Of a stretch of 64,000 nucleotides of DNA, positions 5,899 through 34,706 are shown in pieces (positions within the stretch are counted from its first letter, which is position 1; each line of letters opens with the position of its first letter). Source of the DNA: Patescibacteria group bacterium (GTDB lineage Bacteria > Patescibacteriota > Microgenomatia > UBA8517); assembly GCA_035291665.1 (NCBI GenBank), contig DATDRP010000006.1:209255-273254 (forward strand), given 5' to 3'. A program made the position numbers and the translations under genes. The notes beneath the pieces were generated by a model that searched no databases, was not told the DNA's origin, and saw nothing but the letters and a program-made list of their open reading frames with translations.

Positions 5899-5917
5899 TT
5901 ATTAGTATCTAAATAAA

Positions 5918-7634: not shown

Positions 7635-7637
7635 ATT

Positions 7638-8522: not shown

Positions 8523-8538
8523 AAGAAAATGATAGGAT

Positions 8539-9183: not shown

Positions 9184-9212
9184 TTACAAGCAATATATCA
9201 TTAATGTATATT
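9184..9212 (+). promoter_or_regulatory. candidate promoter TTACAA-N17-TATATT upstream of argG
   Basis: Sequence match to the sigma70 consensus, about 95 nt upstream of the argG ATG. Confidence 0.35.
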
Positions 9213-9306
9213 TCTCACCAATAAATGTATACTTATAAATTATTAAATAATTGGAGTAAGTTTTTATAGTGGTTGCCCACCTAAAAGATGGGTTTTTGAT
9301 GATAAA

Positions 9307-10566: not shown

Positions 10567-10677
10567 TAGTATTAGTTATACAGAACATCGCAAGCCCACA
10601 GTTAGTAGGAATGTGAAGTAAATGAAGGTTTTTTAGAATAAAGTCAAGAAATTAATGGACGAAGAATTGGTCCTTAC

Positions 10678-10706
10678 TTGACAATAATTCCACCCTCTTG
10701 TATATT
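10678..10706 (+). promoter_or_regulatory. candidate promoter TTGACA-N17-TATATT upstream of the aminotransferase gene
   Basis: Perfect -35 hexamer and a near-consensus -10 with 17-nt spacing. Followed by hairpin GTCTCA-gacta-TGAGAC at 10710-10726. Confidence 0.5.
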
Positions 10707-10774
10707 CTGGTCTCAGACTATGAGACATTTATTGATTGGTTCATTTTGGAATAACTTCCCTTTTCATTACTTAA

Positions 10775-11986
10775 ATGGCTGAACTTATTAAGACATCAGA
10801 ATACTTCATAGATCTAGAAAATAGATTTGGTGCCAGAAACTATAAGCCGTTAGACGTTGTAATTGAAAAAGGTGATGGTGTTTGGGTGACCGATGTCAAC
10901 GGAAAAACCTATATTGACATGTTAAGTGCTTATAGTGCTCTTAACCAAGGACACAGGCACCCGAGAATTGTCGAAGCCGCCCAAAATCAGTTGAATAAAA
11001 TTACACTTACTTCAAGAGCTTTTAGAAATGACCAATTCGGACCATTTATTGAAAAGTTGAGTGAAATAACTAATAAAGAAATGGTACTTCCGATGAATTC
11101 AGGATCAGAAGCTGTGGAAACCGCATTAAAAACAGCAAGAAAATGGGGGTACAAGAATAAATTGAAGGAGGATGAAGAAGCTCGGATTATTGTTTGTCGG
11201 GGCAACTTTCATGGGAGAACTATTAGCGTGATTAGTTTTTCTACTGAAGAACAATATCGGGATGGCTTTGGACCATACACACCCGGTTTCGATGTGATTC
11301 CATACGGGGATACAAATGCGTTGGAAAACGCGATAAAGCCAAATACTGTAGGATTTTTGGTTGAGCCAATTCAAGGTGAAGGTGGTGTAATAGTTCCTCC
11401 AAAAGGATACTTGCGTGACGCTTTCGACATTTGCCGAAAAAATAATGTACTTTTTATGGCCGATGAGATTCAAACTGGTTTGGGAAGAACTGGTAAAATG
11501 TTTGCCTGTGATCATGAAAACGTAATACCCGATGTTTATATTTTGGGTAAAGCACTTTCTGGCGGAATACTTCCTCTTTCTGCCGTAGTAGCAAATAAAA
11601 ATATACTTGGGGTATTTGAACCTGGTGATCATGGATCAACTTTTGGAGGAAACCCCCTGGCTTCAGCGGTAGGTCTTGCATCGCTTAATGTTCTGGTTTA
11701 TGAGAATTTGGCAGAGAACTCTGCTCAAATGGGAGAATATTTTCAAGATAGATTGAAAAGGATGGAATCTCCCCATGTTAAAGACATAAGAGGAAAAGGA
11801 CTTCTTATTGGAGTTGAATTGGAACCCGCTGCCGGAAAAGCCCGAGGTTTTTGTGAGCGGTTGCAGGAGGTGGGGGTGTTGGCCAAAGAAACCCATGATG
11901 TTGTTGTTAGATTTGCTCCTCCACTAATAATTAATAAGAATCAAATAGACTGGGCAATGGAGGGAATCGAAAGTGTCTTTAAATAA
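10775..11986 (+). CDS. rocD: ornithine aminotransferase (class III PLP aminotransferase; ArgD/RocD family)
   Basis: Near-identity of blocks to RocD/OAT: GARNYKPL, DMLSAYSALNQGHRHP, KITLTSRAFRND, FHGRT, EIQTGLGRTGK, THD..VRFAPPL. An acetylornithine aminotransferase (ArgD) role cannot be excluded. Confidence 0.8.
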   Translation: MAELIKTSEYFIDLENRFGARNYKPLDVVIEKGDGVWVTDVNGKTYIDMLSAYSALNQGHRHPRIVEAAQNQLNKITLTSRAFRNDQFGPFIEKLSEITNKEMVLPMNSGSEAVETALKTARKWGYKNKLKEDEEARIIVCRGNFHGRTISVISFSTEEQYRDGFGPYTPGFDVIPYGDTNALENAIKPNTVGFLVEPIQGEGGVIVPPKGYLRDAFDICRKNNVLFMADEIQTGLGRTGKMFACDHENVIPDVYILGKALSGGILPLSAVVANKNILGVFEPGDHGSTFGGNPLASAVGLASLNVLVYENLAENSAQMGEYFQDRLKRMESPHVKDIRGKGLLIGVELEPAAGKARGFCERLQEVGVLAKETHDVVVRFAPPLIINKNQIDWAMEGIESVFK

Positions 11987-12030
11987 ATTTGGTATTATAT
12001 TGTTGTAAATCAGGAAGATAATAAAGTTAT

Positions 12031-13188
12031 ATGACCGAACACGAAAAACTATTATCAAGTCTTATTGAAATAAAGTCATACTCAGGTGAAGAGAAAGATA
12101 TTCGTGGTTATATAAAAAAATGGTTTAAAGAGCGGAAAATTGATTCTTTTCGGCAGGATGAAAATTTAATAGTTCATTTTGAAGGTGCAGACAGGTCCAA
12201 AGCATTTATTTTTAATTCCCATATGGATACTGTCAATAGGGGGGACGCAGCTTGGGAATATGGACCTTGGAAGCCAACTAAAGTAGGAAATACGCTTGTT
12301 GGATTAGGAGCGAGTGATATGAAGTCCGGACTTACAGCTTCAATGATTTTGGCGGAAAAATATTCGAACGAAAAGCCCCCAGTTGATCTTTGGTTCACAT
12401 ATGTGACAAGAGAGGAAGTAGATGGTTCCGGAACCGATAGTTTTGCACGGTGGTTCTCTCAAAATAAGTACAACATTCAATACAAAGACAAGGCGGGGAT
12501 ATTTACTGAGCCTACGGGATTGAAAGAAATTGAACACGGACATAGAGGCAATTTATTCTTAATCGCGCAAGCAGAGGGTGAATCCGGACATTCATCTCGA
12601 CCTGGCGATATTAAAGGAACTTTAGCAGTGAAACAAATGTTTAATTTTTCTCAATCTTTTCAAGAACAAGTAAAGTTATGGAATGAAAAATATCAAAGTA
12701 AGTATTTTAATCCGGCAATCACTTTGGGAGAACTAACCTCAATCCAGGCGGGTGTAAACGTTGTTACAAAAAACGGACTTCCCGTAATAGTTCCAGCGTC
12801 ACCAAATAAATTTCCGTCTCTTTGCGTTGCGACATTCGATTTGAGAACCACACCGGAATTTCATGCTGCAGCTTTGAAGAAAGTCGAAGATTTAGCCAAA
12901 AAAGAGGGAATTAAGGTTGATTTACTCTATCCGGAAGCACCTGCTGGATTTACTGACCCTCAAGAAAAGATTATTGAAATAACGAAAAGTAAAGTACCGG
13001 ATGCAATATTGAAAGTATCGCAAGGATCGGCTGATTTGGGCTTTTTAACAGGGTTGGGAATAAAAGCAATAATATTTGGTCCCGGTGAAAAACTTCAGGC
13101 ACATAAGACTAATGAATATTGTTATCCTGTTAAAATTCCTCAAGCAGTTGACCTATATCAAGCAATCGTCGAATCTTGGGCAAAGTGA
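12031..13188 (+). CDS. M20-family metallopeptidase (ArgE/DapE-like deacylase)
   Basis: FNSHMDTV, GLGASDMKSGL and E..G motifs of the M20 family. 385 aa. Confidence 0.7.
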   Translation: MTEHEKLLSSLIEIKSYSGEEKDIRGYIKKWFKERKIDSFRQDENLIVHFEGADRSKAFIFNSHMDTVNRGDAAWEYGPWKPTKVGNTLVGLGASDMKSGLTASMILAEKYSNEKPPVDLWFTYVTREEVDGSGTDSFARWFSQNKYNIQYKDKAGIFTEPTGLKEIEHGHRGNLFLIAQAEGESGHSSRPGDIKGTLAVKQMFNFSQSFQEQVKLWNEKYQSKYFNPAITLGELTSIQAGVNVVTKNGLPVIVPASPNKFPSLCVATFDLRTTPEFHAAALKKVEDLAKKEGIKVDLLYPEAPAGFTDPQEKIIEITKSKVPDAILKVSQGSADLGFLTGLGIKAIIFGPGEKLQAHKTNEYCYPVKIPQAVDLYQAIVESWAK

Positions 13189-13189
13189 T

Positions 13190-14011
13190 ATGAATGAAAG
13201 AGAAAAATTAGTGGAATTTCCTTCTCCTCAACTTCTTCGGATTAATGGAATAGCTGGGATGCATTATCGGACAAACATTTCTCCAAGAGCATTACTGATC
13301 TATGGAATTGGCGCTCCCATTCTTCCCGATAATGGCAATTTACCTGATGCACCAAACATTTTAGAAAGAGGTGTAGATGTGTTTGTACCTGATTACATAG
13401 GTTATGGAAGAAGTGACGGAAATTTTACACCTCAGAATTGCATTAACACATTTGTTGAACTATATGAAAATTTTAAACAAGGATGTACTGGAAGAAATTA
13501 CTATGAAGGGGTATCAACAAAACTTAAATATGAAAGAATAATATTTATCGGTAGAAGTTTTGGTGGTACTTATGTACCTTTACTCCCAAGATTCAATTCA
13601 GAAATTAAAGAATTGGCTCTTTTTTACCCTGTTGTAGATAGTAAGCATTGCGGAGTAGTCGCCGGAGAGGAAACAAACGAACGATTTTTGGGAAGCATGA
13701 AGGAGGATGGTTATCACTACCTATATCGGGGAATTCTTGATCTAATGTGGAAAGCTCATTTGGAGAATGAAGACGATTTGTCACCCATGGACAATATGGA
13801 ATATTTGAAAGAAGCTAAATTATTTATTGCCCATGGAATGAAAGATGCCTGTGTAGATTATTCACATTCTGTTGAGTATTTTAACCAACTTCTGGAGAGG
13901 TATCCGGATAAAAAAGATCAAATTAAACTTAATTTATACCCAGAAGGAAAACACGATAAGTCAACATCAAATTTAGCTATAAGTGATTTCCTGGATTGGC
14001 TAGGTAAGTAA
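13190..14011 (+). CDS. alpha/beta-hydrolase fold protein
   Basis: GRSFGG nucleophile elbow and a His near the C-terminus. The ORF-track start at 13076 overlaps the previous gene by about 110 nt. The in-frame ATG at 13190 (MNEREK) directly follows the upstream stop. Confidence 0.55.
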   Translation: MNEREKLVEFPSPQLLRINGIAGMHYRTNISPRALLIYGIGAPILPDNGNLPDAPNILERGVDVFVPDYIGYGRSDGNFTPQNCINTFVELYENFKQGCTGRNYYEGVSTKLKYERIIFIGRSFGGTYVPLLPRFNSEIKELALFYPVVDSKHCGVVAGEETNERFLGSMKEDGYHYLYRGILDLMWKAHLENEDDLSPMDNMEYLKEAKLFIAHGMKDACVDYSHSVEYFNQLLERYPDKKDQIKLNLYPEGKHDKSTSNLAISDFLDWLGK

Positions 14012-14015
14012 TATT

Positions 14016-14768
14016 ATGATCGAAAAGTTGAATATAAGCGTCTTTGAAAGTTCATTCAAGTCAGAAAAAGAAGCAGAATTGAAAACAGGTTTGAATGGAT
14101 GGAGTGACTTGGTAATGAAAGGCTATGGATTTTCTGGTGACAGTGTGCAAAGGAGTCGGCAATTTGGTTATGAATATTCGGAAAATCCGGATATAAATAT
14201 AATCGCAATTCATTCTAAAGATGAGGTAATTGCGACCTTAACTCTTAGTAAAACGAATATATTTGGAGAATATAATTCGTATTGGTTAAATGGGATAGTA
14301 ATTCTTCCTGAATATAGACAGAAAGGGTTTGGTACAAAATTAATTAAAGAGGCAGCGTTTTTAACAAGCGCTGATGTTTTTGTCGGATCAACGAAAAACC
14401 CAGCGGCAGTAATGACTGTTGTAAATGGAGTACTCGATTGTAGTATGAGATCATACTACGGAATGTATGAAGTAACATCTGAAGTCAATTCAGGTAGATC
14501 TGACCTGCATACAAATTATATTTTAGAATATTTAAAAGCAAAAGGTATTGACAACCCGTCATTGCCTCTTGATGAGAATTCGGTGGTTTTATATAAAGAT
14601 ACTGATGTTTTATCACCCGACATTCCAGCAATTGAAACCTACCCTCAATATTTAAAGGAAGCTTTTGTGCCGGTTATCAGAGCCCAAATATCTGTAGGAA
14701 GGACTAAAACTGCCGTCATGCCATTGATTTCAATTGATGAAAAACTTTTATATGGAAAAACTAAATAG
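14016..14768 (+). CDS. GNAT N-acetyltransferase
   Basis: GIVILPEYRQKGFGTKLIKEA matches motif A. Confidence 0.5.
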   Translation: MIEKLNISVFESSFKSEKEAELKTGLNGWSDLVMKGYGFSGDSVQRSRQFGYEYSENPDINIIAIHSKDEVIATLTLSKTNIFGEYNSYWLNGIVILPEYRQKGFGTKLIKEAAFLTSADVFVGSTKNPAAVMTVVNGVLDCSMRSYYGMYEVTSEVNSGRSDLHTNYILEYLKAKGIDNPSLPLDENSVVLYKDTDVLSPDIPAIETYPQYLKEAFVPVIRAQISVGRTKTAVMPLISIDEKLLYGKTK

Positions 14769-15612
14769 AGATGATGAAGACAAGAAAATTGAATTGTGGT
14801 TTGAGATCGAACAAATTGGAGGTGGTATATTCGTAATCGGTGAACCATATCACCGGGAAGAGGTTTTTTGCTACTTTATTGAAGAAAGAGATAAAGATTT
14901 GTTAATCGATACCGGCATGGGGGTTGTACCAATTACAAAGGCTTTGGAAAAAATTCGAAACTCCAATAAAGAGCTTGTTGCTGTTAATTCTCATGCTCAT
15001 TTTGACCACATTGGGGGCAATTATCAATTAGATAATATATTAGTTCCTGATAATGATTGGGAAATTAATATTATTCGTAAAGGATGGAACCACAGTTCTT
15101 TAGAAAGGTATGGATTTAGTAAAGAGTTTAAGAAGAAACCGATCGGTTTTATAGCCGACACTTTTGAAATTCCAGGTTATGAGAAAATATTACCTGTGCT
15201 TAAAGAAGGTTTTATAATTGATTTAGGTGACAGAAAAATAGAGGTTCTTGAAACCCCTGGCCATACTCCTGGTGGAGTATGTTTTTTCGATAGAAGTAAC
15301 GAGAAATTATTCACATCGGATTTGCTTTATCAGGGACCGCTTTTTTGTTTCGAAAATGAGAGTTCAATTGAAGATTATTATAGTAGTTTAGTGAAACTTA
15401 GAGAGATGAAAAACAACATTAAGCAGATTCACCCTGGCCATAATTATTATGTAGCACAACCGACCCTAATTGATTCCGCATTAGAGTGTTTTGATAGGAT
15501 AATAAGTCATCTCAAACCGGATTATGAAGAAAAATTTAATGATCAGACTTTATTTGTATATTCACATCCGTCTGTTGAAAGTTTAAGTGTATTGGTTAAT
15601 AGTAAAGGTTGA
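14734..15612 (+). CDS. metallo-beta-lactamase fold hydrolase
   Basis: NSHAHFDHIGGN (HxHxDH), plus downstream His/Asp ligands (TPGHTPG). Confidence 0.65.
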   Translation: MMKNFYMEKLNRDDEDKKIELWFEIEQIGGGIFVIGEPYHREEVFCYFIEERDKDLLIDTGMGVVPITKALEKIRNSNKELVAVNSHAHFDHIGGNYQLDNILVPDNDWEINIIRKGWNHSSLERYGFSKEFKKKPIGFIADTFEIPGYEKILPVLKEGFIIDLGDRKIEVLETPGHTPGGVCFFDRSNEKLFTSDLLYQGPLFCFENESSIEDYYSSLVKLREMKNNIKQIHPGHNYYVAQPTLIDSALECFDRIISHLKPDYEEKFNDQTLFVYSHPSVESLSVLVNSKG

Positions 15613-15624
15613 AATATCAAACAT

Positions 15625-16059
15625 ATGTTTATGGAAAATGAGTTGATAAAAAGGAATTTCGGCCGTTTGGAATATCACTACGAGGAGGAGCAGCACGTGT
15701 GGATAATTGACTGGATTGAATCGCATGAAAAAATGGGAGGTAGTAAACTCATCAAAGAATTTGTTGAAATAATCGGTTCCGGGGAAAATGTAGTTATTGA
15801 ATACGTCATAGAAAAAGAGACAAGAAACCAACTTATGAATTTGGGATATGTGAACCGATTATTGTCAGGTAACGATCAGGAAATTGAAATAAAAGACAAA
15901 AAACAACTGGGAAAGCTTAAGTTAGTTAATGTTCAGGAAGACGGAGGGGTTCATGTCGATAGTGTAAAAATCAGCAAGCTCGGATTGATAGGGAGAACAG
16001 AAGGTGGGTTAATGCAGCAATTCGGAAATATTCAAATTAGTATTAATGGGCATACTTAA
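15625..16059 (+). CDS. hypothetical protein
   Basis: ORF only. Confidence 0.4.
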   Translation: MFMENELIKRNFGRLEYHYEEEQHVWIIDWIESHEKMGGSKLIKEFVEIIGSGENVVIEYVIEKETRNQLMNLGYVNRLLSGNDQEIEIKDKKQLGKLKLVNVQEDGGVHVDSVKISKLGLIGRTEGGLMQQFGNIQISINGHT

Positions 16060-16069
16060 AAATAAAAAA

Positions 16070-16098
16070 TTGACTACTATATACCTATAGTGTATATT
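16070..16098 (+). promoter_or_regulatory. candidate promoter TTGACT-N17-TATATT upstream of the RocB-like gene
   Basis: Consensus-like hexamers at correct spacing, 18 nt before the ATG at 16116. Confidence 0.4.
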
Positions 16099-16115
16099 AT
16101 CAATAATTTAAAATT

Positions 16116-17786
16116 ATGGCTGTAGAAAAAAAAATTGAGGCTGAAATTCTTACAAAAGCGTTGATTAAACAACAGAGTATAAGCAAACCTGGTGAGGCAG
16201 AATATAGGATTGAAGAGACTAAATTAGCCGAACAAATAAACAAATGGTTTGAGGAAAAAAATGTTCCCTCCTTTTTACAAGAACTCCCAGACGGTCGAAA
16301 AAACGTTTTCGCATTTGTAGCAGGGAAAAGAGATGAAACAATAGTAATTGCTGGTCATTTTGATACGGTTGATGTTAAAGATTATCTTCGAATGAAACTG
16401 CATCCTTTCGACTCTGACACCTTGGCTGAAGAGCAAGAGATTGATACTGAAAGGTATGTTGTCGGTAGGGGTGCTTTTGACATGAAATCAGGAATTGCTG
16501 TTGGGATGACCTTAATGAATAAATGGAATGAAAATAAAGATAATCTTAATGGATCAGTGCTTTTTGTTGCCACATGTGACGAAGAAAACGATTCTTTCGG
16601 GATACTCAATGCGGCCGATGTTCTACTAGCCGCAAAAGGTAGCGCAATTGATGACGGTAAATTAACCAATCAAGTCAAAAAGCTTACTGGAGGTAGAGAA
16701 CTAAATTTACAAGGAGTAATAAACATGGATTATACAACTGAAAGATTCCCTGGAGATAAAGAATACCATGTTTGGAGTGGAACAATAGGAAAACTTTTAC
16801 CAAGTATAATTGTCAGGGGAAAAGAAACGCATGTGGGTGAACACTTTGGTGGTTTTCATGCCTCATCCTTAATGTCGAGAATAGTTTCAGAATTTGAAGG
16901 AAATATGGAATTTGCAGGGAATAGCGTTCCTCCAACTGTCCTTAAATTGAGTGATGGTAGAGATTTATATAATGTTATGACTGAGAGTACTTTAAGAGCG
17001 TATGTAAATGTGTTTAGTGTAGGCCAAACACCCGCTGAAATCATAGATAAGTTGAAAGATAAAGTGACCCAGGTTGTTGGCGATTATTCAGAATCAATTA
17101 AAAACAATTATGGAATTTACAAAAATAGAATGGGTTTACCAAATGAGGTTGAAATCCCCGATTGGGGAAAGCGAACGAAGGTTATGACCTATTCCGAGCT
17201 ATTGGGGTTGGCTAATGAGAAAATCGGAAAAAGTGAAGTAGACAATCTTATAAAGAAAATAGCCTCAACTGTTCAAGGTGACGGGAGAGATGTAAGTTTC
17301 GCCATTGTTGACGCTTTGCTAACAAGTTCAGAGCTTAAAGATCCCGCTGTTATAATTTTCTACTCTCCACCTTACTATCCCTATATTAAACCTGATAATG
17401 GGAAACTCTATGAAGCGACAAAGGCAAAATCTGATGAAGTTGGAAAAGAATATGGTGTATCAATTACCATGCATCACTTTTATCCTTATATTTCGGATAT
17501 GAGTTACCTGAAACTTGAACCGGAAATCAGTTCAAGTATAAATAAATTAACCGGAGAAATGCCTGTCTGGGGTGTAGAGAACGAAAATGGAAAAAAGGTT
17601 TATCACGTCGATCTTGATAAAGTGGCTAAATTGGGGTTACCTGTAGTCAACGTTGGTCCTTATGGACATGGGGCGCATAAAACCGAAGAAAGGGTAGAGA
17701 AGAAGTATTCGTTCGAAATTCTTCCTGATCTGGTAGATCGTATTGTCAATAATATATTTAATGATGACAAAACCCCTTCATTGTGA
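16116..17786 (+). CDS. RocB-like M20-family peptidase (arginine utilisation protein RocB family)
   Basis: GHFDTVDV and GRGAFDMKSG M20 motifs in a roughly 556-aa protein. Size and motifs resemble Bacillus RocB. Confidence 0.6.
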   Translation: MAVEKKIEAEILTKALIKQQSISKPGEAEYRIEETKLAEQINKWFEEKNVPSFLQELPDGRKNVFAFVAGKRDETIVIAGHFDTVDVKDYLRMKLHPFDSDTLAEEQEIDTERYVVGRGAFDMKSGIAVGMTLMNKWNENKDNLNGSVLFVATCDEENDSFGILNAADVLLAAKGSAIDDGKLTNQVKKLTGGRELNLQGVINMDYTTERFPGDKEYHVWSGTIGKLLPSIIVRGKETHVGEHFGGFHASSLMSRIVSEFEGNMEFAGNSVPPTVLKLSDGRDLYNVMTESTLRAYVNVFSVGQTPAEIIDKLKDKVTQVVGDYSESIKNNYGIYKNRMGLPNEVEIPDWGKRTKVMTYSELLGLANEKIGKSEVDNLIKKIASTVQGDGRDVSFAIVDALLTSSELKDPAVIIFYSPPYYPYIKPDNGKLYEATKAKSDEVGKEYGVSITMHHFYPYISDMSYLKLEPEISSSINKLTGEMPVWGVENENGKKVYHVDLDKVAKLGLPVVNVGPYGHGAHKTEERVEKKYSFEILPDLVDRIVNNIFNDDKTPSL

Positions 17787-18334
17787 AAGAAACAGTTGAA
17801 CGATTAGTTATAAAAGAAAATCGTTTCGATAGTTTAAAGGTTGTTGAAATTATTGTTTCAAGTCAAAAGGGCAAGTTTAGACTTAACAATTTGCTTCCCC
17901 AGGGATGGATTTTTGTTGAAGGCAATAAACCGATCCATACTGACCCTGAAAGGAAAAGGATTCAGATACCTCAAACGCAAAAAGACAAAAAAACAAATAA
18001 GGAAGTCCCTTTCTTGTCCGTTCCCGGTAATACAATTGGACTTCTACACGAAGCCGGACATGCTTTTATAGATGAAGAAATGTCAATGGATGATATTGAG
18101 TTAGATTTGTATTTAAGACAAAAGATGAATTACCAAAGTCTTTCTTCTTTTACACAGGTAGAGTTGAAAGAATATGTAAGACTAGTTTTAAAAGCGGAGA
18201 AAAAAGCTTGGGACTTTGCCTTGAGTACATATAGTAATTTATTGAAAATGGGATTTAATATAGAACCGGATTTAAATAAAAACGATCTAAAAAGTTTAGC
18301 TGCCAGGAAGATGAAATCTTATCCAATTCCTTGA
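17783..18334 (+). CDS. hypothetical protein with HExxH-like motif (LLHEAGHAF)
   Basis: ORF overlaps the previous stop. Possible metallopeptidase-like zinc site. Confidence 0.4.
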   Translation: MKETVERLVIKENRFDSLKVVEIIVSSQKGKFRLNNLLPQGWIFVEGNKPIHTDPERKRIQIPQTQKDKKTNKEVPFLSVPGNTIGLLHEAGHAFIDEEMSMDDIELDLYLRQKMNYQSLSSFTQVELKEYVRLVLKAEKKAWDFALSTYSNLLKMGFNIEPDLNKNDLKSLAARKMKSYPIP

Positions 18335-18421
18335 TGAATACAATTTCTAAGGCTAATATTTGAACAGTAATAGTAATAACTTGACAGTATGATATATACT
18401 ATATACACATTTATTATAAAT

Positions 18422-18466
18422 ATGAGACGTGCTCGTACACTTAGAAATACCAGGAGGATTAATTGA
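18422..18466 (+). CDS. candidate Arg-rich leader peptide MRRARTLRNTRRIN
   Basis: 14-codon ORF with 6 Arg codons (AGA CGT CGT AGA AGG AGG), read from the sequence. Directly followed by two hairpin-plus-T-run structures. Confidence 0.35.
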   Translation: MRRARTLRNTRRIN

Positions 18467-18483
18467 ATCCTTTTTTACTTTGA

Positions 18484-18506
18484 CCCGCGATAAGCGGGTT
18501 TTTTTT
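18484..18506 (+). terminator. intrinsic terminator CCCGC-gataa-GCGGG plus T8, ending 5 nt before the ATG at 18512
   Basis: Perfect 5-bp GC stem with a run of 8 T. A weaker hairpin GGATT-aattg-AATCC plus T6 lies at 18456-18476. Confidence 0.6.
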
Positions 18507-18511
18507 GACTT

Positions 18512-19828
18512 ATGGCAGAAAGAATTAGAGTAGAACAAAAAGAATTAAAAACCCCCGATATGGGTGTATTTGAAGAGACGGCAGAACTGAAAAGGGTGAT
18601 GATGTGGGGACTTCCCGGAGCAGAAACTGTTTTGGGACAACTGTTACCTAAAAAAAGGAGTTGTTTTCAAAAATCTTTTAATGTTTCAGAAGCCAGAGAT
18701 GAGATGGAAGGCGCAATGGATTTGCTCAGAAAAAAAGGAGTTGAAATTTTTGTGGTGAAGGACGAATGGGCAAAAATGATCCAAGAAAAAGGAATAAAAG
18801 CAGATTACGGAATTGATGAACTTAAATCAGAATTAAAGGATAAGGGGGAGTACTTGTACCTGAAATATAAAAAAGAACGCGATGAGGAATATCAAAAGGA
18901 AAAGAAAGAAGCATTGGAAAAAGGGGAAAGGCCTGAAGAACCTGCTGGTCTGGAAGTTTTGGAACTCTTGGACTCAATATTAGACGCAGATGTTAAAAAA
19001 TATGGAGAGAATGCGGCAGTCGTAATGAATCAGAAACTATCCATTGATGGATATTGCTGTAAAGACGGAGAAAATCTTCCTTTGTCAAATATTTTTTACG
19101 CGAGAGATCAGTCAAACCTGATGGGCTCAACATGGATTTGGTCGTCAATGAAGCATGAAATCAGAAAAGCAGAAGTTCCGATTTATAAAGAAGTTGTCAG
19201 ATATTCCGGAATTCTTAAGGATCAGGGTATTACTGAAGTGAATGTCGAGGAAACAAAAGAAGGTGTAGGATTGTTTGAGGGTGGGGATGGGATTGTAAAT
19301 AATGGTATAGCATATATAGGTCTTGGCGGACGATCCGATCTCGAAGGAATAAAACAGGCGGCAAAACCAATTCTTGAAAGCGGATTGAGACTCGTGATTT
19401 GTCGGGATAGAAATAGGGCGCGTTTGGGTGAAGACGAAATGGACGCGATGCATCTGGATACTTTTTGGATGCCTACGGATTTGAATGAAGTAGTTGGATG
19501 TCCTGATGAGATAAAAAACAGGAAAGCATTTGAAGTTTATTTGGATGAAAAATCTCAAATTAAATTTAAATCATTGGGGAGTTTTTCAGATCATTTGCAT
19601 CAGAGGGAGATTGATATGGTGCCGTTAACGATAGACGAACAAAGAAAATATGCTCCGAATTTTCTTAACCTGGGTGGAGGGATTATCATACTGTCATTAG
19701 CGAATGGTAATAACTTGACGGAAGAACTAACCAGTAGGGGAAAAGTTGTTTATAACGCTGATTTTCAGGAGGTTACCAAAGGTTTCGGGGGGCTACATTG
19801 TGCTACCGCTTCACTTTTAAGAGTTTAA
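18512..19828 (+). CDS. pentein-fold enzyme, arginine deiminase-like (amidinotransferase superfamily) with a long charged insertion
   Basis: MGVFEETAELKRVMMWGLPGAE resembles the ADI/DDAH N-terminal motif. C-terminal GGLHCATASLLRV holds the catalytic Cys. The true start may be the internal MGVF at 18560. Confidence 0.55.
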   Translation: MAERIRVEQKELKTPDMGVFEETAELKRVMMWGLPGAETVLGQLLPKKRSCFQKSFNVSEARDEMEGAMDLLRKKGVEIFVVKDEWAKMIQEKGIKADYGIDELKSELKDKGEYLYLKYKKERDEEYQKEKKEALEKGERPEEPAGLEVLELLDSILDADVKKYGENAAVVMNQKLSIDGYCCKDGENLPLSNIFYARDQSNLMGSTWIWSSMKHEIRKAEVPIYKEVVRYSGILKDQGITEVNVEETKEGVGLFEGGDGIVNNGIAYIGLGGRSDLEGIKQAAKPILESGLRLVICRDRNRARLGEDEMDAMHLDTFWMPTDLNEVVGCPDEIKNRKAFEVYLDEKSQIKFKSLGSFSDHLHQREIDMVPLTIDEQRKYAPNFLNLGGGIIILSLANGNNLTEELTSRGKVVYNADFQEVTKGFGGLHCATASLLRV

Positions 19829-19829
19829 T

Positions 19830-21608
19830 ATGCCAATAACAAAAGAACGCGAAATAGGCTACGACTTCACAAATGAGAGGTACCCAATTGTTGGTTTTGA
19901 AAAGGGTATAAAAGGTCTTATAAAAAATTACACCGGTTATAACGGTGAAATTACCATAACAGAAGCCCCTGCAAATTCGGGATCAGATTTTGGAATTCAA
20001 ACTTCTTCTATAGCAAGAGCCAAAGGTGAAAATCCCGTTAGCGTGGCACAAAGTTTATCTCAAAAAGGTTGGTCGCATCCATATATTGATGAAGTAAGAA
20101 GTCAAGGTCCATATTTGAATTTCCGCTTGGAATACGGCACATTTGGTTTGGATGTTGTAAATGGAATTCTCAGCGAGGAAGCAAATTATGGCATGGAAAG
20201 AAAGAAAGAGAAAGGACGGGTAATAGTTGACATGTCTTCACCGAATATAGCCAAAAGAATGAGTTATGGCCATTTGAGATCAACTATTATTGGTGACGCA
20301 GTATCGAATTTATATATAAGCCAAGGCTATGATGTGGTTCGTGATAACCACATTGGAGACTGGGGTACTCAATTCGGAAAGCAAATTGCAGCGATAAAGA
20401 TGTGGGGGGACGAGAAAGAATTGATGAGATCATCGGAACCCGTCGGGGATTTGCAGGAACTTTATCAAAAATTCCATCAAGAAGCTGAAAAACATCCCGA
20501 ATTAGAAGACTTGGGAAGACAGTGGTTTTTGAAATTAGAGCAGGGAGATAAAGAAGCCAGAAGACTTTGGAAAATGTGTGTAGATTTATCAATGAAGGAG
20601 TTTGACCGGGTATATAAAACTTTGGGTGTAAGATTTGATGTTGCAATGGGAGAAAGTTTCTATGAAAAGATGCTTCCGTCGGTGATGAAACAGGTAGATC
20701 GAAGTCCGATCTCAAGCAGAAGTGAAGGAGCATTAGTTGTTGATATGAAAGATAGAAATCTGGGTGTGGCAATTATACAAAAATCTGATGGAGCCAGTGT
20801 TTATATGACAAGAGATTTGGCAACTGCTATGTACAGAGAAAAGAAAATGGGAGCAGAGAAAGCAGTCTACGTTGTAGGGGAAGATCAAAAGCTCTATTTT
20901 CAACAACTGTTTCAAATTTTACAAGGATTAGGTTATGAAATAGGTGAAAAAAGCGACCATGTTTATTTTGGGATGGTCAGGATGGAAGAGGGGAAAATGT
21001 CGACCAGGAAGGGAAGAACCATTCTTCTGGATGATGTTATTAAGGAAGGTTTAGAAAGAGAAAGACAAGTTATATCAAATAGAAATCCCAAACTTTTTAA
21101 TTCAAGAAAAAGAGAAGAGGTAGTAAGACAGGTTGCAATAGGGGCACTCAAATGGAACGATTTATCACGTGACCCGAGAAGATCTATAGTCTTCGATTGG
21201 GATGAAGCATTAAATATGGAAGGTTTTTCTGCTCCATATGTTCAATATGCGGCAGTGAGGGCGAATGCAATTTTAGAACATGCTGGTGTTAATCATAGGC
21301 ACATTGCTCAAGATAATCCTGAAGGTGATGATGTATATAAAGAATCCAGTGAACAAAGTTTAATAAAGAAACTTGCTGCTTATCCAAAAGCTGTAAAACT
21401 TGCTCAGGAACAAAACAATCCATCGATTGTTGCAACCAACGTTTATGAAGTCGCAAAAGAATTTAATTCTTTCTATAGGAACAATCCTGTTTTAAGGGGA
21501 ACGGATAAGAATTTAATTCTTTCAAGATTGAAGTTGGTGGGTGCGACAAGTCAGGTGATAAAAAACGGTCTCGGGATATTGGGAATAGAAGTCCCGGATG
21601 TGATGTAA
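19830..21608 (+). CDS. argS: arginyl-tRNA synthetase
   Basis: Class I HIGH-type SYGHLRSTIIGD, KMSTRKG (KMSKS-like), and DALR-type anticodon-binding YVQYAAVRANAIL. Ends ...DVM. Start is 2 nt after the upstream stop. Confidence 0.9.
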   Translation: MPITKEREIGYDFTNERYPIVGFEKGIKGLIKNYTGYNGEITITEAPANSGSDFGIQTSSIARAKGENPVSVAQSLSQKGWSHPYIDEVRSQGPYLNFRLEYGTFGLDVVNGILSEEANYGMERKKEKGRVIVDMSSPNIAKRMSYGHLRSTIIGDAVSNLYISQGYDVVRDNHIGDWGTQFGKQIAAIKMWGDEKELMRSSEPVGDLQELYQKFHQEAEKHPELEDLGRQWFLKLEQGDKEARRLWKMCVDLSMKEFDRVYKTLGVRFDVAMGESFYEKMLPSVMKQVDRSPISSRSEGALVVDMKDRNLGVAIIQKSDGASVYMTRDLATAMYREKKMGAEKAVYVVGEDQKLYFQQLFQILQGLGYEIGEKSDHVYFGMVRMEEGKMSTRKGRTILLDDVIKEGLERERQVISNRNPKLFNSRKREEVVRQVAIGALKWNDLSRDPRRSIVFDWDEALNMEGFSAPYVQYAAVRANAILEHAGVNHRHIAQDNPEGDDVYKESSEQSLIKKLAAYPKAVKLAQEQNNPSIVATNVYEVAKEFNSFYRNNPVLRGTDKNLILSRLKLVGATSQVIKNGLGILGIEVPDVM

Positions 21609-21674: not shown

Positions 21675-23522
21675 ATGACGGCGGAAGCAAATTTACCTCG
21701 CGACGTTGATCCGTATTCTCCTGAAAACGGCAATATCCCGGAGCTGGTACGTAGAGCTTTGCACATTGCCACCCTTGCGCATGAAGGACAAGTCAGAAAA
21801 TCAGGCGAGCCGTACGTTTCACACCCTATCGCGGTTGAAAAAATATTACACGAGGAATGGGGTTTGGAAAATGAAAATGTAAGGGCTGCCGCACTACTTC
21901 ACGATACTCTGGAGGACACCGATTTGACACCGATTGATCTGACTAATACGTTTGGATCGCAAGTTTCCGGATTGGTTTTTGCCCAAACAAACCTTAATGC
22001 CAGTACTGCAGGCGTGACATCCGAGGAGTGGAAAAAAATTAAGGACAAGGAAAATGCAAGAAAAATTCTTGCCAGAAGTTTTTTGGATCCAACAGTAGGA
22101 GTGGGGAAGCTCGCCGACAGGCTCCATAATATGCGAACGCTGGAACCGATGACACCTCAAAAACAGCAGGAAACTGCTGATGAAACCCGCAGAGTCTATG
22201 CCCCATTGGCGGAAGCTCTCGGAATGTGGCTCGTAAAAACCGAATTGGAAGATCTTTCTTTCCAGTATCTTGATCCGCTGTATTTCGAAAAAGTTAAAAA
22301 AGAGATAGATTCGGATGCAAGACTGAGTGAAAACTCAGTCGGATTTTGGCAATCCAGATTAAGTCTCCTTTTGAACGAAAATGGTATTGATGGCGACGTA
22401 CGGGTAAAGAAAAACGGCTACTGGTCAATTGTGAACAAAAGAAGATCTCAATCGGTTGTCAGAAAGAGCTCGCTTTCGAATTTTTCAGATGTTAATGATG
22501 TTGTCAGTTATCGTTTGGTTTTGGAAAACGAAAGCGATTGTTATCAAGCTTTCGGTCTTGTTCATAAGGAATTTGGCGAGCTGGTCGATTTTGAGAGAGA
22601 TGATGTTTTCATGTATGACAATAAAAGAGATAACGGCTATCAGGCTTTGCAGACAACTTTATCGACAAAAGACGGAGATATTGAAATTGCAATCATGACG
22701 AAGGAGATGGAAGAATTCAATAACTGGGGAGTAGTCAGTCTCAGTAAATATGGTGTAGAAGATTTAAGTCAGTACAGATTGAAATTGGTTTTTACTCCAA
22801 CCGGAGATGTGAAGTTTTTGAAACCTCAGGCAACTGGTATTGATTTTGCATATTTGATTAGCGAAAGTTTGGGTGCACAAGCGTCGGGGTTAACAATAGA
22901 CGGAAAAAGACAACCGATTGCAACCGTTATTCCCAATGCAACCGTGGTTGAAGTTGATCCTGCGAAAGAAACCAGAATTGCGCCAAGTGAGGAAAGCCTG
23001 AACTATGCTCTTCCTGAAACGCGGAGGGTTATTAATAGACAATTAATAATTTCGGAAAACCAGGAAATCGTAACCAGTGTTGGAGATCGTCTTAACAAAG
23101 CTCTTTTATATAAAAGGGGGTTGTTGGAATTTGAGGATTTGGACAGAGGAGTTAAAAGAATAATCCTGAATCGATTCGGAGTACCAGACTTCAATAGTCT
23201 GTGTTTGAAATATGCCGATGATCAAGGCTTGTCGCGCTTGATTTCAAAAATAGATGAAATTCTAGATGGCTTGGGAATCGATAAAGAACTTCGAAGCATA
23301 AGTACGGTATATGTCGAAGGTGTTGATACCCCCGGAGTCTTGGCGGAAATTTCAAACTGGATAAATAAAAAGAAAGGGAATATTAAAAAAGTATCGCACG
23401 AGGTCGATGGAGACAGATATGAACTAAGGCTTGTTGTTGAAGGAATCGGCTCTGTTGGCGAAGTTTTTATGAGAGATAAGCTTGAAAAAGACCCGAGGTT
23501 TGATAAGTGGATCGTTATTTAA
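21675..23522 (+). CDS. RelA/SpoT-family (p)ppGpp synthetase/hydrolase (short RSH with HD, synthetase, TGS-like and ACT regions)
   Basis: HD motif YVSHPIAV...LHDTLEDT. Synthetase block DCYQAFGLVHKEF. C-terminal ACT-like segment. Confidence 0.75.
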   Translation: MTAEANLPRDVDPYSPENGNIPELVRRALHIATLAHEGQVRKSGEPYVSHPIAVEKILHEEWGLENENVRAAALLHDTLEDTDLTPIDLTNTFGSQVSGLVFAQTNLNASTAGVTSEEWKKIKDKENARKILARSFLDPTVGVGKLADRLHNMRTLEPMTPQKQQETADETRRVYAPLAEALGMWLVKTELEDLSFQYLDPLYFEKVKKEIDSDARLSENSVGFWQSRLSLLLNENGIDGDVRVKKNGYWSIVNKRRSQSVVRKSSLSNFSDVNDVVSYRLVLENESDCYQAFGLVHKEFGELVDFERDDVFMYDNKRDNGYQALQTTLSTKDGDIEIAIMTKEMEEFNNWGVVSLSKYGVEDLSQYRLKLVFTPTGDVKFLKPQATGIDFAYLISESLGAQASGLTIDGKRQPIATVIPNATVVEVDPAKETRIAPSEESLNYALPETRRVINRQLIISENQEIVTSVGDRLNKALLYKRGLLEFEDLDRGVKRIILNRFGVPDFNSLCLKYADDQGLSRLISKIDEILDGLGIDKELRSISTVYVEGVDTPGVLAEISNWINKKKGNIKKVSHEVDGDRYELRLVVEGIGSVGEVFMRDKLEKDPRFDKWIVI

Positions 23523-23893
23523 ACCGTTTCGATTATTTCGGAATCAAATTCTATACTTTTTACCTTTATGCTTGTTGGATTATATTTGTCAAAAGCTGAC
23601 TCTAAGGCGTTTTTAAATTCCCCTTCCTCTTTCTCGACGCAAGCCACCAAATCTATATGGACAGTATTATATTCCGGCCAGGTGTGTATAACCAAATGAG
23701 ACTGAGATAGTACGAAAATTGTTGTTGACCCGCCGGGTTGGAAATTGTGAATAAATTTTTCGACCAGATTCAGATTTAAATTACTTATGATAGTTTGTGC
23801 AACGGCCTCGATTGCGGACTCAGAATCCTCGAACGATTTTAATTTTATCAACCCGACAAATTGTTTAATCAGCGGTGTAGATTTTTCCTGCAT
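23519..23893 (-). CDS. speH: S-adenosylmethionine decarboxylase proenzyme, SpeH (class 1b pyruvoyl enzyme) family
   Basis: FVLSQSHLVIHTWPEYNTVHIDLVACVE aligns with the SpeH processing/active-site block (VxSESHxxIHTWPE...DxFTC). Gln replaces the usual Glu before the pyruvoyl Ser. Confidence 0.7.
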   Translation of the reverse strand: MQEKSTPLIKQFVGLIKLKSFEDSESAIEAVAQTIISNLNLNLVEKFIHNFQPGGSTTIFVLSQSHLVIHTWPEYNTVHIDLVACVEKEEGEFKNALESAFDKYNPTSIKVKSIEFDSEIIETV

Positions 23894-24848
23894 AATTTTG
23901 TTTAATCAGCGGTTTAGTAAGCTGTGTAACGTCGCAAACATATAAACTGCTGGTGTTTCCGATGGACTCAGCTTTATTATATCGATTAAATTTATCAAAT
24001 ACCCATCGAACCATTAAACCCATGGATGTTATTGCGCCATGAACCGATACAAATCTTTCTTTTGCCCTGTCGCTGTTTCCATAGCAGAAGTAAATTCTTG
24101 CAGCTTGATTTTGCGGGTCAAGACATTCAATTGCTCTTGAAATAAAGAGTTTCATTCCTTCAGTTGTATAAGGCGGATCCGTAAACACGACATCATACTT
24201 GCCTTGGTATTTTTCGGGTAAGGATTTCTTGACATCATACCGAGCAGTTTCGATTTTGAATTTTTCTTTTTTTGAAATTACATTAATATTTTCTAAAATC
24301 CTGTCATCGATATCCAAAACAGTAATGGCGGATGCTTTTTTTGTATTGGCAATTGCAACGGAAGTAAAATCATCATCTCCCAATAAAAGTATTCTCTTTC
24401 CGGCCACGTCTTCAAACCAGTTAAGTATTTGAGACCGCCTTGCCGTAGTTTCCGCGGTTGCCAAAAACTGATCATAACCCCTCACGGGTTCCGGTCGTTT
24501 ATCGATATATTTATTGAGAAGCTTCAAAGTGGAGTTAAACTCCTTGGTTTTCAAAAATGACCAGAGTGCACCTTCCGGTTGGTATTCGGAATCAAAAAGA
24601 GATAAAACTTCTTCAACAGCATCAACTTTTAATTGGGTATTTTTGGAAGGGATCATTAGCATGTCTGATAACATTTCCTTAGCCTGGTTTAAGGCATTTT
24701 TTGAAACACCTGATTTCTGAAGTAATTCATTATTTTCAACTGGATTGCCGTCGCGCAAAAAATATAAAAAATCTTTAGTCTTCTTTGTTGGTATTCCTGT
24801 TTTTCGCGAAACTTCCAGGATTTTTTCCTTTATGGTATTTTCCATCAT
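23865..24848 (-). CDS. DUF43 / BpsA-like putative aminopropyltransferase (class I MTase-like fold)
   Basis: LLLGDDDFTSVA and DVVFTDPPYT motifs. 29-nt overlap with speH suggests translational coupling with the dcSAM-producing enzyme. Confidence 0.45.
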   Translation of the reverse strand: MMENTIKEKILEVSRKTGIPTKKTKDFLYFLRDGNPVENNELLQKSGVSKNALNQAKEMLSDMLMIPSKNTQLKVDAVEEVLSLFDSEYQPEGALWSFLKTKEFNSTLKLLNKYIDKRPEPVRGYDQFLATAETTARRSQILNWFEDVAGKRILLLGDDDFTSVAIANTKKASAITVLDIDDRILENINVISKKEKFKIETARYDVKKSLPEKYQGKYDVVFTDPPYTTEGMKLFISRAIECLDPQNQAARIYFCYGNSDRAKERFVSVHGAITSMGLMVRWVFDKFNRYNKAESIGNTSSLYVCDVTQLTKPLIKQNYAGKIYTAD

Positions 24849-24991
24849 ATTGAACCAGATTCTATTTGTTTGAATATGCTTTTGTCAAGGAAAAGCAACT
24901 AAGATTTTCTTTGTAAGCAGTTATTTTGATGCATAGAAATTTTTGCCTCAATTACATATTTAACCAGGAAGTTTAGTGTTAGAATTAAACG

Positions 24992-33109: not shown

Positions 33110-34702
33110 TTAATTACCCCCGAGTTCAACGATTACTTTATCTATTTCTTCTTTAGTAAGGATCATCCAGGGAGAACTGTCGGGGTTTGATGTTGATGCA
33201 GCCGGACTGTCCCCCTGAGTCCACCATTTTGCCTGATAGGGAATGCCGTTAAAAAGCACCCTCTGGCCGTCATCATAAACTGTCTCACCTGACCATACCG
33301 GATAAATTCCTGCCGGAAGTGTCACCTGGGGAATGGGTTTTTCTCCGGGTAAAACCGGCCCGATGAGTTGCCAGGGAGTTTCCCATGATTGTAGGACCGG
33401 GTTATCGGGAAGATTACCTTGCGTCCACCATTTTGCCTGATATACACTTTGATGCCAAACCACTTTTGTTCCTTGCAAATAAGTTCCCGATTCACTCCAG
33501 ATTTGATAGGGACTTTCATCGGGGTTATCAGGTTTTTGCTTCGTTGCAGGACTTTCAACCGTTATTAAAGATGCGTTACCGCTAATATCTCCGGCAAATC
33601 CCCTGCCAAGAATATTTGTAAAAGCGGACTTTTCCTGCTTTATGCCGCTGCAGGAGTCGGATACGACGCTTATGTTTACATAATTTTCCCCGCACTCGAC
33701 ATCCCTATTTCCCGACCATATTGATATTCTGGCAATGCCTTTTGAGATCGCAAATTCATTCAAACCGGCGGCATCTTCCAGAGTGAATATTTCATCCGCA
33801 AAATCATTTTGGCCGATCATCGGGGTTGCACCGATTTTTGTCCAAAGGGTCGAATCACTAAGGTTTTTTCCCGATTGATTGTACAAAATTCGAAGTTGCC
33901 GGTGAGTTTCGGTTAACGCCATTTCCGAGGCTTGCTGCATGGTTTGGTTCTTTTCCCGGCTTGCACCGTAATCCATAGTCATGACATTTACACCCGCCAA
34001 GTCAACACCTTCCGATAACATCGCAGAAACTGCATTAGTTCCGTCCTGGGTGAGTCCCTGCGGAGAAACGGGTAAAGTCAGCCAAACAGCAAGGCTTTTT
34101 CCTTCAAGTCTTTTAGTTTTTTGAAGTTCAGCAACAACCATTCCCCTTCGCTTCAATGCATCTGGATCAGTGAGGCCGTTGCCTTCAAGATCAAGGTCAA
34201 TCGTATCAATACCATAGCGGTCAATTACAGATTTATACGCTTCAATCAGATTCCCTTGATCTTCACATTTGACTGCAAGCTCATCGTTTCGTAAACCGCC
34301 AAATGATACAGCGATATTGCCCTGCTTTTGCCTGAAAAGAGCAATCCGCCTGTCAAGATCAAGCTGAACTCCGGCTTCGTCAAGCGTGTACGCTCCTCCC
34401 CAGGCGGGTGTACAAGTGTCTTTTGCGGAAGAAACAATAAATGACAAAACCGCATTATTTGATAAACTTTTGCCGTCGATATGCTCAAAATCAAATATTG
34501 GTGTTGCGGTAACATCCACATATTCGGCAAACCAGGGTTTGACGTTTACCGATAAATAATTATCCTTAAACCTTTGCAAGCTCCAAAAAATACTCCAGGA
34601 GATACCCGCAAGCATAAGAAGGGCAAGGATCACCCTCCAAGGAGAAAGTCGTCTTCTTTTTTCTGTATTGACAGTTGTTGAGGTTGCATCTATTTTACTC
34701 AT
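33110..34702 (-). CDS. GH18 chitinase-like glycoside hydrolase with two C-terminal CBM5/12 chitin-binding domains, N-terminal TM anchor
   Basis: GIDTIDLDLEG (DxxDxDxE catalytic motif), VMTMDYGAS. Two C-terminal repeats each containing YQAKWWTQG (CBM5/12 signature). Confidence 0.75.
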   Translation of the reverse strand: MSKIDATSTTVNTEKRRRLSPWRVILALLMLAGISWSIFWSLQRFKDNYLSVNVKPWFAEYVDVTATPIFDFEHIDGKSLSNNAVLSFIVSSAKDTCTPAWGGAYTLDEAGVQLDLDRRIALFRQKQGNIAVSFGGLRNDELAVKCEDQGNLIEAYKSVIDRYGIDTIDLDLEGNGLTDPDALKRRGMVVAELQKTKRLEGKSLAVWLTLPVSPQGLTQDGTNAVSAMLSEGVDLAGVNVMTMDYGASREKNQTMQQASEMALTETHRQLRILYNQSGKNLSDSTLWTKIGATPMIGQNDFADEIFTLEDAAGLNEFAISKGIARISIWSGNRDVECGENYVNISVVSDSCSGIKQEKSAFTNILGRGFAGDISGNASLITVESPATKQKPDNPDESPYQIWSESGTYLQGTKVVWHQSVYQAKWWTQGNLPDNPVLQSWETPWQLIGPVLPGEKPIPQVTLPAGIYPVWSGETVYDDGQRVLFNGIPYQAKWWTQGDSPAASTSNPDSSPWMILTKEEIDKVIVELGGN

Positions 34703-34706
34703 AGTT

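Follow-up and report, generated by a model that had tools for sequence, protein, structure and literature searches.

A pair of overlapping genes, predicted to specify the synthesis and the use of decarboxylated S-adenosylmethionine (dcSAM), resides in a 64,000-nucleotide (nt) stretch of DNA from a Patescibacteria group bacterium (assembly GCA_035291665.1, contig DATDRP010000006.1), here called the window. The upstream gene encodes a 327 amino acid (aa) protein related to the branched-chain polyamine synthase BpsA; the downstream gene, speH, encodes a homologue of the pyruvoyl-dependent S-adenosylmethionine decarboxylase (AdoMetDC). The pair is best read as a dcSAM maker and an aminopropyltransferase of other than the SpeE type, making up a self-contained, co-translated aminopropylation module; this reading is given a probability of about 0.72. 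Family membership, motif conservation, fold, gene coupling, natural fusions and gene context are its basis, and from these we infer the activities of the two enzymes, the self-cleavage of SpeH and the nature of the acceptor.

Annotation of the window pair in this sense is already known. Public databases hold both exact proteins, from a "Patescibacteria group bacterium" metagenome-assembled genome (MAG), under the NCBI names "bis-aminopropyl spermidine synthase family protein" and "S-adenosylmethionine decarboxylase". The window alone thus offers a modest result, a correctly annotated two-gene module. The family-level picture is new, that of a tail-divergent, Patescibacteria-wide BpsA subfamily tied to AdoMetDC and often heading a 7-deazaguanine cluster. 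The pair is made up as follows:

23865..24848, minus strand: BpsA-like gene, 327 aa, putative dcSAM-dependent aminopropyltransferase (PF01861; from Pfam and structure matches)
23519..23893, minus strand: speH, 124 aa, class-1b pyruvoyl AdoMetDC homologue (from Pfam AdoMet_dc)
23865..23893, minus strand: 29-nt overlap of the 3' end of the BpsA-like gene and the start of speH (from open reading frame (ORF) coordinates)

Coupling of the two genes across genomes

The start codon of speH precedes the stop codon of the BpsA-like gene, and the codons for the IYT residues of the transferase and the STP residues of SpeH are the same nucleotides read in different frames. The original prediction, made from the sequence of the window, had reported the 29-nt overlap (23865-23893) and proposed translational coupling; the overlap is as described, and coupling gains support from related loci. 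A scan of a genome collection yielded one such locus, in Saccharibacteria, which shows the identical 29-nt overlap; a metagenome scan yielded 80 further loci, which form the comparative set. Counts were made on 63 distinct BpsA-like genes followed by at least 380 nt. speH is found directly downstream in 49 of them. In 27 of the 49 coupled loci the overlap measures exactly 29 nt, in nearly all others 23–77 nt, and three feature a short gap. Each transferase is accompanied by one SpeD homologue only, the one exception resembling a split gene. About a fifth of the BpsA-like genes (14/63) are not directly followed by speH, as in loci L005-L007, L021, L023 (Woesebacteria), L013/L014, L031, L039, L055 and L071. 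FolE directly follows the BpsA-like gene, in place of speH, in L020, L022 and L087.

Natural BpsA_C-AdoMet_dc fusions are found in two independent proteins, P0174 (417 aa, 38% identity to the window protein) and P0185 (427 aa, 24% identity). In both, a spacer separates the IYT tail from the N-terminus of SpeH, and they are therefore no simple frameshift artefacts of the overlap. The pairing of the BpsA-like gene with speH is real: the genes are translationally coupled, kept as a pair, and fused elsewhere. Both ORFs in the window are, by their similarity to known families, real genes rather than chance ORFs, since Pfam scores exceed the cut-offs and the arrangement recurs in related loci. Green and colleagues reportedly described AdoMetDC-spermidine synthase fusion proteins in some bacteria (Mol Microbiol, 2011). 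P0174 and P0185 likewise join producer and consumer of dcSAM, but their transferase is BpsA-type (PF01861), not SpeE-type, and the order is transferase, then decarboxylase.

The transferase and the decarboxylase

Membership of the 327-aa protein in the DUF43/BpsA family, claimed in the original prediction, is borne out by a Pfam search. Residues 112-308 match BpsA_C (PF01861) with 168.9 bits (E 1.5e-49, cut-off 27), and RNA/DNA methyltransferase models score 24–26 bits, just over their cut-offs (N6-adenineMlase 26.3 bits, Cons_hypoth95/RsmD 24.8 bits), ~140 bits behind. The nearest solved proteins are Tk-BpsA (5xnc), a Pyrococcus homologue (2qm3) and Tt-BpsA (6j27); 5xnc is matched with E 1.4e-22 by the single sequence, and with E 1.5e-37 by the family profile. 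The AlphaFold2 model (predicted local distance difference test, pLDDT, 91.4) features a winged-helix-like N-terminal domain (approximately residues 1-100) and a Rossmann-fold catalytic domain. Foldseek ranked 5xnc/6j27 first (E 3.7e-22), both domains being matched, and 5xnc_B gave template modelling (TM) scores of 0.65/0.61 over 342 columns; DPPY-type amino-methyltransferases (METTL5, PH1948, TrmN) come next. The catalytic domain is ~30% identical to that of BpsA, and structural alignment gives ~22%.

The GDDD and DPPY motifs noticed earlier are both present, at residues 157-160 and 224-227:

24369..24380, minus strand: GDDD motif, G157-D158-D159-D160 (read from sequence)
24168..24179, minus strand: DPPY motif, D224-P225-P226-Y227 (read from sequence)
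23865..23936, minus strand: C-terminal tail, residues 305-327 and stop codon, ending ...TKPLIKQNYAGKIYTAD (from the family alignment)

Conservation was assessed in an alignment of 40 family members. G157, D158 and D160 do not vary, and D159 is conserved in at least 90% of the sequences. In Tk-BpsA the GDDD residues (G157-D160) position the aminopropyl amine of dcSAM (PMC12979288). DPPY is invariant, and corresponds to DPPE in Tk-BpsA and DPVE in Tt-BpsA. An RxYDQF segment, D260 and Y290 are also invariant or nearly so. In Tk-BpsA the acceptor amine is activated by D225, E259, Y290 and Y316 (PMC12979288). The first three correspond to D224 (invariant), D260 (nearly invariant) and Y290 (invariant) of the window protein; Y316 falls outside the alignable region, and the tail of the window protein has Y319 and Y324.

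The tail sets the Patescibacteria proteins apart. BpsA ends in a flexible acidic cluster (E339, D342, D343, E344, E345), which acts as covalent aminopropyl carrier and also sets product specificity; the Tt-BpsA version is DEE (PMC12979288). No acidic carrier cluster was found in the window tail (...TKPLIKQNYAGKIYTAD) or in the family consensus, KTKPLIxGxYDKPIYTNN, in which Y324 and T325 are invariant and Y319 nearly invariant. Compared to BpsA (N4-bis(aminopropyl)spermidine synthase, EC 2.5.1.128; Thermococcus kodakarensis and Thermus thermophilus; 5xnc, 5xnf, 5xnh, 6j27), the window protein has in common PF01861, the two-domain fold, a GDDD loop at identical residue numbers, and counterparts of D126/Q127, D225, E259 (here Asp260) and Y290. 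It differs in length (327 vs 351 aa), in DPPY vs DPPE/DPVE, and in the IYTNN tail vs the acidic cluster. BpsA resides in thermophiles, whereas the proteins analyzed here reside in Patescibacteria, are AdoMetDC-coupled or fused, and often head a 7-deazaguanine cluster. The transferase thus appears to be a BpsA-fold aminopropyltransferase which lacks one defining BpsA feature, the acidic C-terminal cluster. Judged by alignment and tail, it is not a canonical BpsA, but a member of a Patescibacteria-wide subfamily apart from the characterised enzymes.

A word-indexed search retrieved 624 homologues, mostly from Patescibacteria MAGs. The 120 homologues listed are 52–66% identical to the window protein; among the sources named are Woesebacteria, Chisholmbacteria, and "Patescibacteria group". 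Contig names, the sole source of habitat here, suggest that many come from groundwater or sediment. According to a 2026 review, bpsA and branched polyamines are confined to thermophiles and hyperthermophiles, of which the synthase is held to be a hallmark. On sequence grounds the BpsA family is not so confined, and a large conserved clade in ultra-small, largely uncultured Patescibacteria challenges the view. The clade branches distantly within the family, and the review's statement on orthologues is not contradicted. A Patescibacteria BpsA clade with its own dcSAM supply implies either that the chemistry is not tied to heat, or that a second, unrecognised substrate class exists.

The small protein had been called an AdoMetDC-type pyruvoyl enzyme, and this assignment looks sound. 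SpeH matches Pfam AdoMet_dc (PF02675) with 66.5 bits (E 3.1e-18, cut-off 25), and its nearest solved relatives are the AdoMetDCs of Aquifex (2iii) and Thermotoga (1tlu), matched at ~1e-9. The processing site is placed as follows:

23699..23704, minus strand: Gln64-Ser65, predicted self-cleavage site in LSQSH (from alignment to Thermotoga AdoMetDC)

The predicted beta and alpha chains correspond to residues 1-64 and 65-124, respectively. Ser65, His70 and Cys85 align to Thermotoga S63, H68 and C83, known as self-processing and catalytic residues (PMC10407285). SpeH also features the HTWPE motif (H70-T-W-P73-E), in which Pro is fully conserved in bona fide AdoMetDCs, but not in derivatives acting as arginine decarboxylases (ADCs; PMC10407285). 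Size, fold family, Ser/His/Cys residues and the HTWPE Pro are all shared with class 1b AdoMetDCs (Thermotoga maritima, Aquifex aeolicus, Bacillus subtilis; PF02675, TIGR03330). An aminopropyltransferase partner is found in both cases, but it is BpsA-like here and SpeE there; Gln replaces Glu before the pyruvoyl Ser, and the TIGR03330 score is under the cut-off.

The original prediction had regarded Gln before the pyruvoyl Ser as unusual, hinting at defective processing or an ADC-type paralogue. This did not hold. The residue was recorded in the 150 nearest representatives of SpeH at 50% identity, 136 of which could be parsed. Glu was found in 69, Gln in 37, Ser in 13, Thr in 6, Asn and Ala in 3 each, Gly, Phe, Asp and Lys in one each. 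In SpeH proteins coupled to a BpsA-like gene, Glu and Gln occur in 24 and 18 cases, respectively. Glu at this position is, by these counts, no strict family feature, and Gln64, the second commonest residue, is ordinary in the clade. As a mark of an inactive or ADC-type paralogue Gln64 was therefore rejected, being common in the clade and found in the same coupled context as Glu. The E. coli SpeD is cleaved after a Lys, which argues that the side chain before the pyruvoyl Ser has no part in the chemistry.

SpeH was also scored against validated two-domain proteins from the supplement of Li et al. 2023 (PMC10407285). AdoMetDC domains were matched with 21–30 bits, ornithine decarboxylase (ODC) domains with ~0 bits; the profile of the SpeH clade gave 37–53 vs 4–7 bits. 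None of the four ODC-diagnostic residues (Gln, Thr, Phe, Tyr) is found in SpeH, which reads FVLSQS..HTW where the validated ODC reads QLIETS..GHF..Y. Identity with the ODC-type homologue SpeDC was rejected on these two grounds. The window protein resembles SpeDC and the ADC-type SpeDA in being a small class-1b SpeD homologue, and all three relate to genomes devoid of SpeE, including some of the candidate phyla radiation (CPR; Li et al. 2023, PMC10407285). SpeH differs in lacking the ODC signature, in keeping the AdoMetDC Pro, and in having a partner predicted to use dcSAM, though sequence separates SpeDA and AdoMetDC poorly (PMC10407285). "SpeD without SpeE" is by itself no proof of a neofunctionalised decarboxylase, and a BpsA-type partner needs checking in annotation.

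The search of representatives also retrieved P0224, a 400-aa protein in which a PP-loop ATPase, with weak matches to QueC, ThiI and PP-loop models, is fused to a C-terminal AdoMetDC domain of the SpeH clade. P0224 was not used as a tie between SpeH and QueC, as its PP-loop domain has no BLAST match to the QueC-like proteins of the clusters described below.

Proposed route, acceptor and alternatives

In the module proposed, the SpeH proenzyme would cleave itself between Gln64 and Ser65 to yield a pyruvoyl-bearing alpha chain, and the processed enzyme would decarboxylate S-adenosylmethionine (SAM) to dcSAM. The BpsA-like enzyme would hold dcSAM via the GDDD157-160 loop, while D224 (of DPPY), D260 and Y290 would bind the amine acceptor; transfer of the aminopropyl group would release methylthioadenosine (MTA). 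An aliphatic amine is the most probable acceptor, with a scavenged di- or polyamine as the likeliest candidate, which would be turned into an extended or branched polyamine. The acidic C-terminal carriers being absent, the covalent ping-pong route of BpsA may not be used. Synthesis of branched or long-chain polyamines, suggested in the original prediction, is only one option, and a doubtful one.

The transferase had been said to lack a SpeE-type motif, and GGG[DE]G is indeed absent from it and from every window ORF of at least 50 aa. PF01564 matched none of the ~52 window proteins scanned, and a phmmer search with an approximate E. coli SpeE query, a rough probe, gave no hit in the window or in 87 loci. 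Agmatinase and SpeY, which mark the gene context of SpeDA, are also missing from the window. The predicted association of a dcSAM maker with a non-SpeE aminopropyltransferase is well supported.

The comparative set provides a context which the window lacks. Neighbours of the pair were clustered and scanned with Pfam and NCBIfam models, and frequencies refer to 46 distinct loci with enough flank. Genes of 7-deazaguanine metabolism adjoin the BpsA-like/speH pair in 22 of the 46. The co-directional array includes the genes for the BpsA-like protein, SpeH, FolE, QueD, a QueE-like radical SAM enzyme, a QueC-like PP-loop enzyme (195–419 aa), a NodU-type carbamoyltransferase and a family-2 glycosyltransferase (GT2). 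Variable members are a DegT aminotransferase, an APH-family kinase, a family-1 glycosyltransferase (GT1), a PIG-L protein, serine hydroxymethyltransferase (SHMT), a P-loop protein and a KsgA/Erm-like methyltransferase; two of these, SHMT and the KsgA-like gene, may owe their place to synteny of housekeeping genes. De novo type arrays are exemplified by L044:1028-10008, L030:8001-16174, L048, L050, L081 and L082. In salvage-type loci (L008:8001-16584, L009, L011, L017 and L026, for example) a QueF-like T-fold protein (110 aa) and a Vut_1 (YhhQ-type) transporter are encoded at the site of FolE, QueD and QueE, and QueC is also found there. One deazaguanine supply module is therefore swapped for another at the same site, which argues for a functional link with the pair. 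The 22 loci with 7-deazaguanine genes are scattered over the neighbour-joining tree, and the window protein branches beside such clades. In L002-L004 (Chisholmbacteria-type), a gene for a 394-aa carbamoyltransferase of the ornithine carbamoyltransferase (OTCase) family lies directly upstream of the pair, in the same direction (6659-7843 in L002).

The related loci, the window excluded, share the FolE-QueD-QueE-QueC core and glycosyltransferase(s) with known 7-deazapurine clusters (toyocamycin, huimycin, dapiramicin) and with queuosine/preQ0 pathways. CPR loci add the NodU-type carbamoyltransferase, PIG-L, DegT and APH, and some feature the Vut_1/YhhQ-type transporter and the QueF-like protein instead of de novo synthesis. 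Literature searches on 7-deazapurine clusters retrieved no described cluster with AdoMetDC or a BpsA-type transferase, and those on DUF43/PF01861 and on a connection of deazaguanine with aminopropyl transfer yielded no relevant paper. The association with glycosyl and carbamoyl transfer points to unexplored small-molecule or nucleic-acid chemistry in a group usually credited with little biosynthetic capacity.

On these grounds the pair might provide the aminopropyl donor for an undescribed 7-deazaguanine pathway of Patescibacteria rather than for a polyamine pathway, and the window pair would be a reduced form that uses the same acceptor after scavenging; the odds of this are rather low. A base derived from preQ0 or 7-carboxy-7-deazaguanine (CDG) would be made de novo (FolE-QueD-QueE-QueC), or imported by the Vut_1/YhhQ-type transporter with the QueF-like protein. 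The base, or an amino sugar on it, would then be aminopropylated, glycosylated and carbamoylated, and the outcome would be either a nucleoside- or aminoglycoside-like compound that is secreted, or a novel modification of nucleic acids. FolE, QueC, QueD, QueE, CarbT and GT2 homologues were not found in the 64-kb window. A homologue search with the cluster carbamoyltransferase gave no match from the source contig of the window among the best 120 (at least 44% identity), while a control gene from L008 recovered its own contig, which suggests that the cluster is absent from this genome also beyond 64 kb. Rfam scans of the window and of nine cluster loci for riboswitches (preQ1, SAM or other) matched tRNAs only.

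Several observations weigh against the aminopropylation module with an aliphatic amine as acceptor. The 22/46 loci with a 7-deazaguanine context suggest a non-polyamine acceptor in at least some lineages, and DPPY is typical of enzymes which alkylate exocyclic amino groups of nucleobases. The acidic carrier cluster is missing, as said. Nothing in the 64-kb window would provide spermidine or putrescine: SpeE, ADC, ODC, agmatinase and a polyamine (Pot) transporter were all missing among the ~52 proteins scanned, as were MetK and MTA nucleosidase. As for the decarboxylase, SpeH scores 59.4 bits with NCBIfam TIGR03330, under the equivalog cut-off of 75.65, and ADC-type SpeD homologues are poorly separable from AdoMetDC by sequence (PMC10407285).

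Were the transferase a true BpsA orthologue, it would convert spermidine to N4-aminopropylspermidine and N4-bis(aminopropyl)spermidine, or make long-chain polyamines, with dcSAM from SpeH. The protein is a BpsA_C member with BpsA enzymes as nearest solved structures, GDDD and the equivalents of D225, E259 and Y290 are conserved, and the NCBI name conforms. Such an orthologue is nevertheless unlikely, given the low identity over the catalytic domain and in the structural alignment, the conserved IYTNN tail in place of E339 and D342-E345, the absence of genes for spermidine synthesis or import from the window, and Patescibacteria hosts with groundwater- or sediment-like contig names, a setting read from the names, vs a thermophile-only bpsA. 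A different role for SpeH, that of a neofunctionalised ADC or ODC which supplies the acceptor (agmatine or putrescine), dcSAM coming from elsewhere or remaining unused, would agree with the missing SpeE, the score under the TIGR03330 cut-off, and the genes for ArgG, two ADI/DDAH-family proteins and arginyl-tRNA synthetase (ArgRS) just upstream of the pair, as with the OTCase gene preceding the pair in L002. SpeD homologues devoid of a SpeE partner are often ADC or ODC, and one of these is from the CPR (Li et al. 2023, PMC10407285). No ODC-diagnostic residue is found in SpeH, however, validated ODC domains score ~0 bits, and the AdoMetDC-conserved Pro is kept. A single SpeD homologue per locus next to a GDDD loop built for dcSAM would leave the module without donor, and the two-domain fusions (P0174, P0185) fit donor supply; this role is very unlikely.

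The 327-aa protein could also be viewed as a DPPY-type SAM N-methyltransferase acting on RNA, DNA or protein (RsmD, METTL5 or N6-adenine type), its adjacency to speH being incidental. The invariant DPPY, the weak N6-adenineMlase (26.3 bits) and Cons_hypoth95/RsmD (24.8 bits) matches, METTL5, PH1948 and TrmN as next-best structural matches, and the winged-helix-like N-terminal domain are all compatible with this. BpsA_C leads by the ~140 bits given above, and the methyltransferase identity was rejected as the main reading on the Pfam scores. GDDD stands in place of a glycine-rich SAM loop, and its aspartates bind the dcSAM amine (PMC12979288) and would presumably clash with the carboxylate of SAM. 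Coupling to an AdoMetDC gene in 49 of 63 loci and the two fusions also oppose a methyltransferase, which is left with a minimal chance of being correct.

The pair and its surroundings in the window

Signals at the junction of the genes and upstream of the pair, and the gene found on the opposite side, are listed below:

24859..24888, minus strand: promoter-like site, TTGACA-18 nt-TAGAAT (consensus scan, 11/12 positions; a pattern match only)
23861-23876 and 23898-23913 (span 23861..23913), no strand: 16-nt perfect direct repeats, period 37 (0 expected by chance)
21675-23522, plus strand: full-length RelA/SpoT homologue (HD, RelA_SpoT, TGS, ACT), converging on speH

The promoter-like site ends 10 nt ahead of the ATG of the BpsA-like gene, which would leave a very short leader. 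A Shine-Dalgarno sequence is not apparent before this ATG, and no terminator-like site was found between the two genes. The 16-nt repeat codes for PLIKQ twice, once near the end of the BpsA-like protein and once at the beginning of SpeH, each copy being read in the frame of its gene. Removal of a single 37-nt unit would join the genes into one reading frame. The repeat was not found at the DNA level in other loci, and was rejected as a family feature, being unique to the window. At the protein level, the tail of the BpsA-like proteins (TKPLIxGxY) resembles the SpeH N-terminus (STPxIxx[FY]) family-wide.

The pair stands alone in the window. The RelA/SpoT homologue is convergent downstream, its stop codon and that of speH sharing 4 nt (TTAA), and a CHASE4-HAMP histidine kinase gene is divergent upstream. 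A long co-directional array, rich in genes of arginine/guanidino-type metabolism, spans 2624-21608 on the plus strand. Besides a PALP enzyme, BtpA and 3–4 GNATs, it includes an M15 dipeptidase and two M20 peptidases, a HAD and an MBL hydrolase, inositol monophosphatase, a class-III aminotransferase, argininosuccinate synthase and arginyl-tRNA synthetase, as well as two proteins of the ADI/DDAH-amidinotransferase family at 6720-7634 and 18512-19828. Such an array is unusual for a reduced genome, and could supply or use an amine tied to the pair.

Two other regions, both on the minus strand, are worth recording. A copper/heavy-metal block at 46487-58878 features two P-type ATPases (HMA/HMBD), a two-component system, a DsbD_2-cupredoxin-HMA protein and a DsbA-like thioredoxin. 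At 33110-36989, the gene for a GH18-like protein with CBM5/12 adjoins that for a 760-aa family-2 glycosyltransferase of the chitin/cellulose synthase type.

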